Assembly: GCA_023230665.1 (NCBI GenBank)
Contig: JALNWY010000002.1
Span: 1-61,131 of the forward strand
DNA from: Deltaproteobacteria bacterium
GTDB taxonomy: Bacteria > Desulfobacterota > Desulfomonilia > UBA1062
Direction: 5' to 3'
DNA length: 61,131 nucleotides
In this document: positions 41,980-46,146 of the stretch, in pieces
How the letters are laid out: each line of letters begins with the position of its first letter
Numbering within the stretch: the stretch's first letter is position 1
Made by a program: the position numbers and the translations under genes
The notes under the pieces: generated by a model
Told to the model about the DNA's origin: nothing
Databases searched by the model: none
Seen by the model: only the letters and a program-made list of their open reading frames with translations

Positions 41980-42411
41980 ATGTTTCAGACAATACTCTAC
42001 CCTACGGATTTCTCGGATGTAGCCCAGAAGGCGCTCGGCTATATCGACCAGTTCAAGCCTGCAGGCACGAAAAAGGTTGTCATCGTCCACATCATTGACT
42101 CCCGGACCATGGACCTGCTCGTGTATGCCCCTACCAGCTACATGGCCATCGAGAAAGACCTGCGGGAGGAAGCACAGAGCAAGATCGAGCTTATAGGAAA
42201 ACACCTGGAGAAGAGCGGGTTCTCCGTAAGCGTGCGGGTCGAAGTCGGGATACCCTCGAACAAGATCCTTATGCTGGAAGAGGAAGAAAACGCCTCACTG
42301 ATCGTGCTGGGTTCCCACGGCAAGAGCAACCTCAAGGAGATGTTCCTCGGGTCGGTCTCCGAGAGCGTCATCCGGGCCGCCCGCAATCCGGTGCTCGTGG
42401 TGAAACGGTAA
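41980..42411 (+). CDS. Universal stress protein (UspA family)
   Basis: ILYPTDFS ... LIVLGSHGKSNLKEMFLGSVSESVIRAARNPVLVV. Confidence 0.92.
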   Translation: MFQTILYPTDFSDVAQKALGYIDQFKPAGTKKVVIVHIIDSRTMDLLVYAPTSYMAIEKDLREEAQSKIELIGKHLEKSGFSVSVRVEVGIPSNKILMLEEEENASLIVLGSHGKSNLKEMFLGSVSESVIRAARNPVLVVKR

Positions 42412-42479
42412 GGTATCTCCCAAGCCGGGGCCGGGACGATCAATGGCATGAACTTGAAAAAAGAGGATCAAAGGCCTTT

Positions 42480-43949
42480 TTAGTCCCGGGGGTCCACGAA
42501 CCTGCCGAGAAAGAGGAACAGGCCGGTCTTGTTTTCCCGGATCACGAACACGAAAGGACGGTCCGCGACAAAGGCCGCTACGGCCCCGGACCCCTTGGCC
42601 ATGACAGCACCGGACCCAGACGCCGCCTCGACTCCCTCTTCCCGAACCTCAAGGAATGCCTTGTGAACCACTGCGGTGAGAACAAGGTTTTTTTGCGACG
42701 TGATTCCGGAGAAGTCCGCTTCCTGCGTAAAAGCCGTTCTCATCCCCAAGAGGCCCAGCGTATCGGCAAGCTCGCGCCCGTCTTTAACGACAAACCGGGG
42801 AAGTGAGAGCTTCGCCCTGATTTGGGGTGATCCTGCGAGCCGGTCCAGTAACCTTGCCAGCCCCTCGTGCGTCATGCCTTCCTCAATGGCGGCCAGGTCC
42901 GTGCCCTCGCGGGGAAGTAGGATTATCAGGGAAAACGTGCCCGCATCAAAGGGTATTCCGATCGTGTCCCCCTCCTCTAAAGCCAGTGCCCTGACATCCG
43001 CCTTCCCATGCATGAAAGGCGTCTGTACCGTTTCGCCCCGGTTCGTGCGAAACGCCCTGTTGCGGGTGTCCTCCGGGTCGAACGGCTCAAGCCATTTGCC
43101 GGAAAACCGTATCACATCGGTCACCACCAGCTCTGTACTTGCATGAACCATGCCTTCATCCAGAAGCGCGGTGATCGTTCCCTGGGTCCGCTCGACTGCC
43201 CAGGCATTGATTCTTTCCAGGGCCTGCCCAGGACCTGTGGAAAAATCCACCACGAACGCGTCTGCTCCATGATAGTGCTGCAAAAGATCCAGATACTCTC
43301 TGCGATATTCGTTCCCCTCCTGCACCCACAGGGCGCGGGCGGTCTCGGGCGAGCCAGCTGCATCGTGATGGACGAGTTCGGGCCCGGGCAGGGGAACTGG
43401 GCCATGAAGACCGCCCTCACGCCGGTGGAGGCGGAGGACCGATGCCATCTCCCTCCTGGTCTGTCCACCTGCCCCGGCACAGAGCATGGTAAGCGCGGTT
43501 GAAATGCTCGAAGGAGAAAAAAGGAGGTTTCCCTTGCGCACCTTCAGGCAGGCGTAGAGATCAAGACCGAAAAGATTGCTGCTCTCTGCCTCACTGCTTG
43601 CCCCTCCTTGGTGGGCCTGCCTGTTGCCCGATCCGTTGCACAGTGAGGTGCAGGACATCCCGGGCTGCTGAAAAGCGTCTGCGGCCCCGTCCGGGACGAG
43701 TCCGGGGCCGCAGGCCTGCTCCATGGTTCCGGTTGTATCTCCGCAGCCCCACATCACATCGGAGAATATCAGATAATCGGCCGCGCCCCTGAACTCATAG
43801 GCCACCTCGAACATGCCCATGAGACAGGTGTCGAGATTGATGACATCGAAGACCACACCGCTTTCCCGCACCGCCCTGGCCAGATCAGCGAGCGAGGTCA
43901 TGGCGTGGCTGCCTGCCGAGGTAGTGTCGATGAACATTCCCTTGGCCAT
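42480..43949 (-). CDS. Serpin (residues ~125-489) carrying an in-frame N-terminal fragment of a clostripain-like C11 peptidase
   Basis: Serpin blocks: LLFSPSSISTALTMLCAGAGG, FSLIILLP, the hinge EVREEGVEAASGSG and FVADRPFVFVIRE. The N-terminus VVFDVINLDTCLMGMFEVAYEFRGAADYLIFSD matches the C11 Cys block. The true start is uncertain because the first ATG has no SD. Confidence 0.8.
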   Translation of the reverse strand: MAKGMFIDTTSAGSHAMTSLADLARAVRESGVVFDVINLDTCLMGMFEVAYEFRGAADYLIFSDVMWGCGDTTGTMEQACGPGLVPDGAADAFQQPGMSCTSLCNGSGNRQAHQGGASSEAESSNLFGLDLYACLKVRKGNLLFSPSSISTALTMLCAGAGGQTRREMASVLRLHRREGGLHGPVPLPGPELVHHDAAGSPETARALWVQEGNEYRREYLDLLQHYHGADAFVVDFSTGPGQALERINAWAVERTQGTITALLDEGMVHASTELVVTDVIRFSGKWLEPFDPEDTRNRAFRTNRGETVQTPFMHGKADVRALALEEGDTIGIPFDAGTFSLIILLPREGTDLAAIEEGMTHEGLARLLDRLAGSPQIRAKLSLPRFVVKDGRELADTLGLLGMRTAFTQEADFSGITSQKNLVLTAVVHKAFLEVREEGVEAASGSGAVMAKGSGAVAAFVADRPFVFVIRENKTGLFLFLGRFVDPRD

Positions 43950-44039
43950 GGCCGGAGAGGTCTGATAGTCCTTTCCCGCCTGAGTATCTCACCTGTGCGT
44001 CCTTATCAGAGAATCATCAGCATCCGCTTGGAGTAGAAC

Positions 44040-44256
44040 GTTCTGCCACGCCCTGTAAGGTACAGAGTAGTCCGCTTCCGGACCGGCATCAAATCACGGA
44101 AGAAGAGAGGGCCGGCCCTGAAACCGGCCGGTCCCAACTCGATGTTGCGGCAACAACTCGTAAGGAAGGAGAGCAGTGAGCAGCCTAGACGGCTATACCC
44201 ATCCGGGACCGGCTTAGCCAGTCCCTTTAACCACACCCACAGGGTGTGGCTTTTTA
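44040..44256 (+). ncRNA. Candidate structured RNA ending at a plus-strand intrinsic terminator (5' end not defined)
   Basis: Consecutive hairpins at 44053-44065, 44075-44102, 44109-44135 and 44205-44225, then the terminator at 44231-44255. No credible ORF and no plus-strand gene follows. Confidence 0.3.
44231..44255 (+). terminator. Rho-independent terminator
   Basis: CCACACCC-ACA-GGGTGTGG followed by CTTTTT. On the minus strand the run is 5' of the hairpin, so the element is plus-oriented. Confidence 0.65.
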
Positions 44257-44313
44257 CTTCTCAGTAAATCCCGCCAGGGGCGGGAACTTGAGAAAACCTC
44301 AATTCTAGCAAGG

Positions 44314-45090
44314 CTATAACAGGATCAGCGCAATGAGGATGGTGGTCGCGCCTGCCAGGAAGGCGATATCGCTCTTCCTGGCATGGGGGCACTTCATCCG
44401 GGTCCGGGTGATACCCGGGGAGTAGCCCCTTAAGGTGAGCGCGACGGCGAGGTCGTCGGCGCGGCGGAACACGCTGTGCAGGAGCGGCACGATGACCGGC
44501 ACCAGAGAGCGTATCTTCCTGAAGACGCCGCCGGTCTCCATGTCAACGCCCCGGGCCTTCTGGGCCTTGATGATGCGGTCCGTCTCCTCGAACAGCAGGG
44601 GGATGAAGCGGATCGCCAGCATGATGAGCAGGGCGATCTCGTCCACGGGAACCTTGAGGTATTTCAAGGGCTTCATGTACCACTCCATGGCCCACACCAT
44701 GTCGAGCGGCGAGGTCGTCAGGGTCATGAGGGTGGAGATCCAGATAGCGAAAACCAGCTGGAAACCGGTGTAGGTCCCGTTCGACAAACCCTGCCAGGTG
44801 GCGTGGGGAATCCAGGGAATGGGGCTGCCGGGCGTCATGAACACGTGGAGCACCGCGGTCATGGCAAAGAGCCAGAGAAAGGGGCTTAAGCCCCTGAGGA
44901 GCCTCCGGAACGACAGGCCTGCGATCAGGGTGATAAAAGAGCACGCTGCGAAAAACAACACCAGCCCGGGAGGCGTGTCCATCTGGAATGCCGCACCGAT
45001 GCTGAAAGCCATGAGAAAGAGCTTCACCCGCGGGTCCAAGGCATGGACCGGGGAATCTCCGGGGATGTACTGCCCCAGGGTCATCTGCAT
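44314..45090 (-). CDS. ecfT: Energy-coupling-factor transporter transmembrane component (EcfT/CbiQ family)
   Basis: 258 aa: HALDPRVKL, FIPLLFEE...I..AQKARG. No ecfA or S-component gene lies adjacent. Confidence 0.85.
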   Translation of the reverse strand: MQMTLGQYIPGDSPVHALDPRVKLFLMAFSIGAAFQMDTPPGLVLFFAACSFITLIAGLSFRRLLRGLSPFLWLFAMTAVLHVFMTPGSPIPWIPHATWQGLSNGTYTGFQLVFAIWISTLMTLTTSPLDMVWAMEWYMKPLKYLKVPVDEIALLIMLAIRFIPLLFEETDRIIKAQKARGVDMETGGVFRKIRSLVPVIVPLLHSVFRRADDLAVALTLRGYSPGITRTRMKCPHARKSDIAFLAGATTILIALILL

Positions 45091-45132
45091 GGCTTGTCAG
45101 AAGGGTGTGCGGGTATCATGCTCCTCGGTCCC

Positions 45133-46146
45133 TCACCGGTTTATGGAGATCAGGTGCTCCGCGATCCGGACCGCATTGATCGCAGTCCCCTTTCGGATAT
45201 TGTCAGAGACGCTCCACAGGGCGATGCCGTTTTCCGTGGAGAGATCTTCCCTGATCCTGCCAACGAAACACTCGTCCTTTCCGGTTACGTATACAGGCAG
45301 CGGGTAGATTCCTGCGGCCGGATTGTCCTCCACCCTGATGCCGGGGAAATGTTTCAGGATCGACCTGACCTTGTCTGGAGACAACTTTTTCACGGTCTGG
45401 ATGTTCACTGACTGAGAGTGGCAGTAATACATGGGCACCAGCACCATGGTGGCACTGATCCGTACGGCGCTGCTCTCCAGGACTTTTTTCGTCTCTTCTG
45501 CAATACGCATCTCGTCTGATGTATAGGCGTTGTCCAGGAAAGGGCCGACCTGGGGAATGACGTTGAAGGCCATCTGGTGCGGAAACACGGACGACCGAGT
45601 CTCCCGGAAGTTGAAGAGATCGGCGATCTGCTCGGTGAGTGCCTCCAGGGCCGTATCTCCCATGTCGGATACGGCCTGGTAGGTGGAGAGAACGACCTTA
45701 AGGACCACGGCTGCCCGATGAATGGGTCCCAGCACAAGGGCTGCCTGCACGGCGGCCGGACACGGGCTGGCGATGATGCCTTTGTTTCCGGAGATCCGGT
45801 GCGCGTTGATCTCGGGCACGACCAGCGGGACACCCTCATCCATCCGGAAGCATGGCGTGGTATCGATCACCGTGCAGCCCTGCTTTGCCGCGCCAGGGGC
45901 ATACTCTTTGCTGATCTTTTCGGTCGAGGCGAAAAAGGCGATGTCCACACCCTGAAACAAGGTTTTTTTTATGGTCTGTACCGGAATCTCCTCGTCCCGA
46001 TATTGTACGGTGCTGCCGAGCGAACCCTGGGTCGCCAGAGGGATGAGTTCCGCTGCCGGAAAATCCCGCTCTCCAAGCACGGTCACGATTTCCTTGCCCG
46101 CAGTGGTGGTCGCACCCACCACAGCGATCCGATAGTGTTTTGCCAT
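45133..46146 (-). CDS. asd: Aspartate-semialdehyde dehydrogenase family protein (Asd/USG-1-like; non-canonical active-site block)
   Basis: 337 aa: VVGATTTAGKE, PLVVPEIN, STYQAVS, HSQSV and DNIRKGTAINAVRIAE. It has IASPCPAAV where Asd normally has IANPNCSTI. Confidence 0.8.
   Translation of the reverse strand: MAKHYRIAVVGATTTAGKEIVTVLGERDFPAAELIPLATQGSLGSTVQYRDEEIPVQTIKKTLFQGVDIAFFASTEKISKEYAPGAAKQGCTVIDTTPCFRMDEGVPLVVPEINAHRISGNKGIIASPCPAAVQAALVLGPIHRAAVVLKVVLSTYQAVSDMGDTALEALTEQIADLFNFRETRSSVFPHQMAFNVIPQVGPFLDNAYTSDEMRIAEETKKVLESSAVRISATMVLVPMYYCHSQSVNIQTVKKLSPDKVRSILKHFPGIRVEDNPAAGIYPLPVYVTGKDECFVGRIREDLSTENGIALWSVSDNIRKGTAINAVRIAEHLISINR

Follow-up and report, generated by a model that had tools for sequence, protein, structure and literature searches.

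Results

The window, i.e., the whole stretch of 61,131 nt that was analyzed (contig JALNWY010000002.1 of the Desulfomonilia assembly GCA_023230665.1), contains on its minus strand at 42480..43949 an open reading frame (ORF) of 489 aa with an ATG start, in which a fragment of a clostripain-like cysteine peptidase gene (family C11) is fused via a linker to a serpin. Judged from comparisons with related genomes, the ORF is most likely a pseudogene of recent origin, and very probably it is the relic of a two-gene operon that was collapsed by deletions and then decayed. The homology of both parts, the two junctions, the loss of the signal peptide, a frameshift allele and an excess of differences between strains were observed directly, while the non-functionality is inferred.

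A Chimera of a C11 Peptidase Fragment and a Serpin

The original prediction, made from the sequence of the window, had described the ORF as a chimera of the block around the catalytic cysteine of C11 peptidases and a complete serpin. This was verified by profile searches of both parts, which gave significant matches. Residues 123-487 (42489-43583) matched positions 2-370 of the 370 positions of the Pfam profile Serpin (PF00079) with 300.7 bits and an E-value of 2.2e-89. The profile Peptidase_C11 (PF03415), for which the Pfam gathering cut-off is 25.8 bits, matched residues 18-68 with 38.9 bits (E 1e-9) when the whole ORF was scanned, and residues 8-68 with 42.3 bits (E 9e-11) when the first 122 residues were scanned alone. 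The matching part corresponds to profile positions 114-172 of 359. With the NCBIfam equivalog profile for clostripain only a weak partial match of 13-16 bits was obtained, compared with a cut-off of 550. The chimera is real, and its resemblance to C11 peptidases is well beyond chance.

Intact Relatives and the Two Deletion Junctions

A protein search yielded three close relatives, namely P0001 (79% identical, 477 aa), P0003 (67%, 488 aa), and P0002, which is 95% identical, has a length of only 308 aa and stems from a Desulfomonilia metagenome-assembled genome (MAG). The alignment of P0001 and P0003 with the ORF begins at residue 65 (VMWGCGD...) and extends to the C-terminus. The preceding part is C11 sequence in the window, but in these two relatives it is a hydrophobic signal peptide with a lipobox-like xxGC at its end. 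In two related Desulfomonilia assemblies, L002 and L003, an intact Peptidase_C11 gene is located directly upstream of an intact serpin gene, on the same strand and at the syntenic site. The C11 proteins have lengths of 424 aa (L002) and 414 aa (L003), the serpins of 477 aa (L002) and 488 aa (L003), and the two genes of L002 overlap by 4 nt. The L002 proteins cover positions 1-343 of the C11 profile and 2-370 of the serpin profile, respectively, and in the relatives both products bear signal peptides or lipoboxes. The intact upstream C11 gene that had been suggested as a check on the prediction thus exists in both genomes, and the proposal of a protease-inhibitor pair collapsed by deletion is borne out by these tandem genes and by the junctions described below.

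A blastn comparison of the locus with L002 gave three collinear blocks, and the picture with L003 was the same. The first block (window 44117-43970, L002 227-374, 86.6% identity) is non-coding DNA upstream of the C11 gene, so that the retained region at 43970..44117 of the minus strand is orthologous to DNA in front of the intact C11 gene, in line with the claim that no coding frame precedes the ORF. The second block (window 43973-43759, L002 847-1061) comprises C11 codons 150-220 with 89.8% identity over 215 bp; the identity to L003 (9125-9339) is 85.1%. This internal C11 gene fragment (43759..43973, minus strand), which Pfam also recognized, has its first 24 nt upstream of the ATG. The third block (window 43757-42300, L002 1827-3286, 84.1%) extends from serpin codon 53 to beyond the stop codon. 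The serpin-derived segment of the ORF therein (42480..43757, minus strand), delimited by blastn, alignments, Pfam and structure prediction, starts at V65, inside the former lipobox.

By comparison with L002 and L003 both deletion junctions on the minus strand could be mapped to the base. At junction 1 (43969..43977) the non-coding upstream region continues directly into C11 codon 150, within a GGAAGG microhomology. About 472 bp were lost (L002 375-846), comprising the ribosome binding site, the start codon, the signal peptide and the N-terminal half of the C11 gene including the His block LWSHGSGW, which in the orthologue ends exactly at the junction, immediately 5' of it. At junction 2 (43758..43758), which has a CCG microhomology, C11 codon 221 (GA-) is joined to serpin codon 53, and one odd base, a T, completes the codon and brings the join in frame. 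Here about 765 bp were lost (L002 1062-1826), comprising the C-terminal half of the C11 gene, the serpin start, and the hydrophobic core (h-region) of the serpin signal peptide. The start codon of the ORF (43947..43949, minus strand) corresponds to the C11 codon GCG (Ala) in L002 and ACG (Thr) in L003, and therefore the ATG is the product of a point substitution.

As the window is a metagenome-derived contig, reads of a C11 gene and a serpin gene could in principle have been mis-joined during assembly. This artefact was rejected because independent assemblies share both junctions, and its probability is negligible. The junctions recur in L001, an independently assembled NCBI MAG with 99.8% identity to the window across 20.9 kb, and likewise in the JGI and Logan contigs that code for the proteins P0192 and P0214; in addition, the flanking synteny is continuous.

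The following course of events is proposed. An ancestor in the Desulfomonilia would have had a gene for a lipid-anchored, secreted C11 cysteine peptidase followed by a gene for a lipid-anchored, secreted serpin. In the lineage of the contig, two microhomology-associated deletions would have removed both native starts, most of the C11 gene and the core of the serpin signal peptide. A 215-bp piece of the C11 gene would have survived, by chance in frame with the serpin, and a later point change would have created an ATG within this piece, so that gene finders call a single ORF of 489 aa. Since then the remnant would have been evolving neutrally, with a frameshift in most conspecific assemblies.

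Loss of Translation and Export Signals and of the Peptidase Core

The original prediction had noted that an in-frame TGA precedes the ATG by 13 codons and that a Shine-Dalgarno motif is lacking, and both observations are correct. No Shine-Dalgarno motif is well placed before the ATG; the sequence GGAAAGGA lies about 20-27 nt in front of it. A good motif was also not found before any other candidate start, including the internal Met codons 76 and 98. A three-frame translation of the DNA upstream of the ATG revealed no hidden N-terminal C11 remnant and no His block, and a tblastn search of the whole window with an intact C11 protein retrieved the 215-bp fragment only and thus no second C11 copy on the contig.

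The signal for export is missing as well. The maximal Kyte-Doolittle hydropathy over 13 residues is 1.59 for the ORF product and lies inside the C11 piece, compared with 2.99-3.33 for the orthologous serpins of L002, L003 and three further species (L010, L011, L020). An N-terminal signal peptide like that of the orthologues is not present, because the h-region is replaced by C11 sequence. The intact orthologous serpins are all predicted to be exported, whereas the predicted product of the ORF cannot reach the periplasm or the outer membrane, the putative sites of action of its orthologues. The native translation start and the targeting signals have thus been lost relative to the orthologues, which is one hallmark of a pseudogene.

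In the C11 part, the codon of the catalytic cysteine is located at 43824-43826, as had been predicted; it specifies Cys42 within the motif NLDTC. The acidic S1 residue two positions before it, D40 (43830-43832; D40-T41-C42), is also kept. The dyad of His and Cys is incomplete: Cys42 is present, while the His block lies within the deleted segment. The absence of this block had been recognized correctly, but the spacing of about 100 residues that had been assumed was too long. The His is expected about 46-54 residues before the Cys, as in PmC11, in which His133 and Cys179 form the dyad, Asp177 lines the S1 pocket, and Arg/Lys is preferred at P1 (PMC4850288). Nor does the ORF encode a complete caspase-like alpha/beta core with a C-terminal domain, since its match is restricted to profile positions 114-172, whereas the intact protein of L002 covers 1-343. 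With the N-terminal strands, the catalytic His and the C-terminal domain lost, about 17% of the C11 domain is left. The C11 part therefore lacks the defining features of a C11 peptidase, and for want of the His and of most of the domain the predicted product cannot be a peptidase.

The serpin part is much better preserved. An AlphaFold2 model based on a 76-sequence alignment has a confident serpin core, with a predicted local distance difference test score (pLDDT) above 90 over most of residues 120-489. Residues 1-111 have a pLDDT of 37-73 and were modelled as helices, unlike the beta-strand core of C11 peptidases; the loop of residues 445-455 is exposed and has a low pLDDT. Among solved structures, the serpin part matched Serpin B3/B4, conserpin and bacterial serpins (8gxv, miropin 5ncs), down to an E-value of 2e-55. 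Both its sequence and its predicted fold identify it as a genuine serpin.

Its reactive-centre loop (42570..42641, minus strand) was delimited by sequence reading, by the modelled loop 445-455 and by motif comparison. It comprises the hinge E437-E438-G439, the residues A-A-S-G at P12-P9, and then V-M-A-K452-G453-S. With a Gly at P15 and small residues at P12-P9 (E437 E G V E A A S G) the hinge is of the inhibitory type, in agreement with the prediction, and P14 is Val rather than Thr or Ser. Counted canonically from P17 (E437), Lys452 (codon 42594-42596) would be P2 and Gly453 P1, and the earlier placement of a Lys at or next to P1 was therefore fair. Lys452 would be P1 if the loop were effectively one residue shorter; CrmA is a serpin with such an effectively shorter loop.

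The completeness of the serpin domain, the inhibitory-type hinge and the confident predicted fold, together with the in-frame junction and the newly created ATG, would be in keeping with a functional new fusion, a real bait-type architecture as considered in the original prediction. The catalytic-Cys block would then be a decoy or docking module, or the serpin would have been retargeted to the cytoplasm. This is highly improbable. The C11 piece comprises 61 of about 350 domain residues, without the His and without a C11-like predicted fold, and an in-frame outcome is expected by chance in one of three cases. Only a single species-level lineage has the fusion, most assemblies of this lineage contain the frameshift, nonsynonymous differences are in excess, with the hinge included (see below), and the product has no signal peptide. 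No independent C11-serpin fusion was found among the relatives searched, i.e., 84 relatives of the C11 part and 120 listed relatives of the serpin part; the only case was P0192, a frameshift fragment of the same locus. If the chimera of the uninterrupted allele were translated, it might be a new cytoplasmic serpin whose C11-derived N-terminal 64 residues serve in docking or as a decoy for a partner of the clan CD type, but also this is quite improbable.

A Frameshift Allele Predominates Among Close Relatives

The decay of the collapsed operon became apparent when the window was compared with conspecific assemblies. L001 contains both deletions as in the window and, in addition, a 1-nt insertion after window position 43362, outside of a homopolymer. 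The site of the extra A (GAT-A-GCA; 43361..43362, minus strand; compare L001:10045) is uninterrupted in the window, which represents the ancestral state, since the insertion is derived relative to L002 and L003. Through the insertion the ORF is broken into two pieces, P0192 (264 aa) and P0002 (308 aa). In the cluster at 90% identity, the 308-aa frameshift product accounts for 10 of 13 distinct sequences and about 29 contigs (NCBI, JGI, ENA, Logan), and the 489-aa form for two of the 13 sequences and two contigs, i.e., that of the window and a Logan contig of 3.9 kb; these contig counts do not equal independent strain counts, and a metagenome consensus can mix haplotypes. A disabling mutation thus segregates in close relatives (the +1 insertion of L001 and of 10/13 cluster members), which is a second hallmark of a pseudogene.

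The sequence differences between the window and L001 are also concentrated in the ORF. Within its 1.47 kb there are nine substitutions, eight of them nonsynonymous, and one indel, while about 16.6 kb of flanking genes contain 18 substitutions (nine synonymous, nine nonsynonymous). The density of differences in the ORF is therefore about sixfold higher than in the neighbouring genes. Polarization with L002 and L003 revealed that the window allele has derived replacements at the conserved positions G271S, E316K, A350T and A444S. The last of these is an A>S exchange at P10 of the hinge, and the L001-type allele has a derived A>E exchange at P12.

The intergenic region between the serpin ORF and the preceding cbiQ gene also differs between the two assemblies, with a length difference of 3 nt (AAA) at 44226-44228. 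This spacer of 364 bp holds 8 of the 43 differences between the window and L001, a density similar to that of the serpin remnant.

Several points weigh against a pseudogene, in addition to the stated limit on the contig counts. The join is in frame, an ATG has been gained, and the ORF still encodes a complete serpin domain that is predicted to fold. The contrast to the neighbouring genes in the ratio of nonsynonymous to synonymous differences, 8:1 versus 9:9, is not significant alone. On the branch since the split from L002, 25.5 synonymous and 22.5 nonsynonymous changes were counted, and on the L002 branch 26 of each, which is no difference. The frameshift is present on both major amino-acid haplotype backgrounds and is also absent on both (P0205 versus P0206/P0207; P0214 versus P0002), which points to recombination between strains or to chimeras among the metagenome consensus sequences. 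The branch-specific counts of synonymous and nonsynonymous changes revealed no long-term relaxation of selection. Because the balance on the branch is like that of L002, the collapse is taken to be recent; either the relaxation is recent, or constraint persisted for most of the branch since the split from L002.

Some of these observations would also fit a serpin part that is still a working gene, i.e., a cytoplasmic serpin translated from the new ATG or from an internal Met (76 or 98), with the C11 piece as leader or debris. The serpin core is complete, the uninterrupted frame has been kept in the window and one other contig, and the pairwise ratio of nonsynonymous to synonymous substitution rates (dN/dS) is about 0.28, similar to that of orthologues. 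Nevertheless, this alternative is unlikely, as the signal peptide is gone whereas the intact orthologues are all exported, no candidate start has a good Shine-Dalgarno motif, the frameshift allele predominates, the window allele itself has the four derived replacements at conserved positions, one of them at P10, and the partner protease has been lost. A young pseudogene, formed by the collapse of the operon, is the preferred reading.

The Chromosomal Neighbourhood

The genes downstream of the locus are alike in the window and the relatives and encode Usp, LysE, a YjeF-type protein, MgtC, a deacetylase, PFK, a 5'-3' exonuclease and an MFS protein. This conserved chromosomal neighbourhood is common to the window and L001-L003, and because of it the locus is not regarded as mobile accessory DNA. 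The G+C content of the locus, 0.60, is near that of the window, 0.58. The earlier view that the serpin is accessory content was therefore abandoned.

On the upstream side, the homology with the region preceding the orthologous C11 gene ends at about 44117, so that a synteny breakpoint adjoins the collapsed operon. Beyond this point the window contains a CbiQ/ECF-T gene and an asd-leuCD-leuA cluster, and L003 contains genes for a branched-chain amino-acid ABC transporter. A terminator-like palindrome (44231-44249) follows cbiQ. A second terminator-like hairpin is located at 44129-44110, at the retained non-coding region. This region (43970..44117) may still hold the operon promoter or a 5' leader; in a promoter scan no sigma-70-like site was found in front of the ORF. 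When 42000-45200 was searched against Rfam at a permissive threshold, the non-coding region upstream gave nothing credible, and the only two matches were eukaryotic and at chance level.

The Ancestral C11-Serpin Operon

The species representatives of GTDB were scanned with a C11 alignment, and the 80 loci that were returned were searched with home-built hidden Markov models for serpins and C11 peptidases. Three further species, L010, L011 and L020, were found to have an intact C11 gene followed by an intact serpin gene on the same strand, abutting or overlapping, and this was confirmed with Pfam. Their C11 proteins are 40-49% identical to that of L002. Intact pairs therefore exist in five other species, all Thermodesulfobacteriota/Desulfomonilia MAGs: L002 (400-3104), L003 (8708-11467), L010 (5692-8685), L011 (5860-8488) and L020 (5491-8530). 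No serpin was found within 6 kb of the other 75 C11 loci of the scan. The hosts of the operon are several Thermodesulfobacteriota species from anaerobic digesters and sediments.

In the sister species L004 and L005, which have C11 proteins 81% identical to that of L002, the C11 gene is intact and the downstream serpin is degraded (L004:7223-8013; L005:7223-8355), with differing internal deletions of about 660 bp and about 333 bp, respectively, relative to L003, and with frame changes. This decay of a serpin beside an intact C11 gene is the reciprocal of the decay in the window. Since either partner has been lost independently, the C11 peptidase in the lineage of the window and the serpin in L004 and L005, the pair does not seem to be an obligate toxin-antidote couple.

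The C11-linked serpins are 35-45% identical to one another and thus no closer than to unlinked bacterial serpins. All six have the motif M-[TSA]-K-[GS] at positions 14-17 from the hinge P17. A Lys at this loop position is otherwise rare and occurs in only four of 103 related serpins, namely P0001, P0003, P0018, which looks L020-like, and one other of the MTKS type. Adjacency, the conserved loop Lys motif and the S1 Asp of the C11 protein together suggest that the serpin may be the cognate inhibitor of the neighbouring C11 peptidase. The target of the ancestral serpin may accordingly be the adjacent, putatively Arg/Lys-specific enzyme, as judged from adjacency and motif. Whether the operon was a dedicated pair of a clan CD (C11) protease and its serpin inhibitor, with the Lys as bait residue, is about an even bet. 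The original prediction had connected the loop Lys of the serpin with the Arg/Lys specificity of C11 peptidases. This match gains indirect support in this way, but it applies to the ancestor and not to the ORF in the window. A co-encoded bacterial C11-serpin operon was not described in the open-access literature searched, and nothing relevant on serpins with clostripain or on the gene context of bacterial serpins was found there.

Discussion

The ORF is chiefly a caution, because an automatically called "serpin family protein" with a significant C11 match turned out to be, in all probability, the scar of deletions rather than a genuine domain architecture. A fusion family should not be derived from it. 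The ORF itself is of low interest, and its worth is that it points to an intact ancestor. The ancestral operon is a modestly interesting lead; if its serpin is indeed the cognate inhibitor of the C11 peptidase, it would offer a tractable bacterial model for the control of a clan CD cysteine peptidase by a serpin.

The ORF product shares with the inhibitory serpins (MEROPS I4, PF00079) the full-length domain, the hinge of the form EEG-x-E-AA-small, the exposed loop and the predicted native fold. It differs from them in its N-terminus, which is foreign C11 sequence without an export signal, unlike that of its own orthologues, as well as in the Val at P14, the hinge replacements among alleles, and the frameshift in most conspecifics.

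Serpins are known to inhibit clan CD cysteine peptidases, e.g., CrmA or serpin B9 with caspases and Arabidopsis Serpin1 with metacaspase 9. The ancestral operon resembles these cases in that it combines a serpin with a conserved loop Lys and a clan CD enzyme for which Arg/Lys specificity is predicted from the S1 Asp. In contrast to the operon, these cases are eukaryotic or viral and are not operon-encoded, and the pairing proposed here is drawn from adjacency and the loop motif. In the window, moreover, the protease partner has been destroyed.

With the clostripain family (MEROPS C11, clan CD; PmC11, clostripain), residues 8-68 have in common the segment from the inter-dyad loop to the strand of the catalytic Cys and the S1 Asp-x-Cys (PMC4850288). 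The ORF differs from the family in that only about 17% of the domain is present and the His, the N-terminal strands and the C-terminal domain are lacking.

A further parallel is provided by the chimeric ORFs and pseudogenes that deletions generate in bacteria, to which the ORF corresponds in its junction microhomology, the loss of translation signals, the later frameshift, and the elevated, mostly nonsynonymous mutational load. Its sole oddity is that two separate deletions left an in-frame island of the upstream gene. Taken together, the chimera belongs to an ordinary class, that of ORFs fused by deletions between neighbouring genes.

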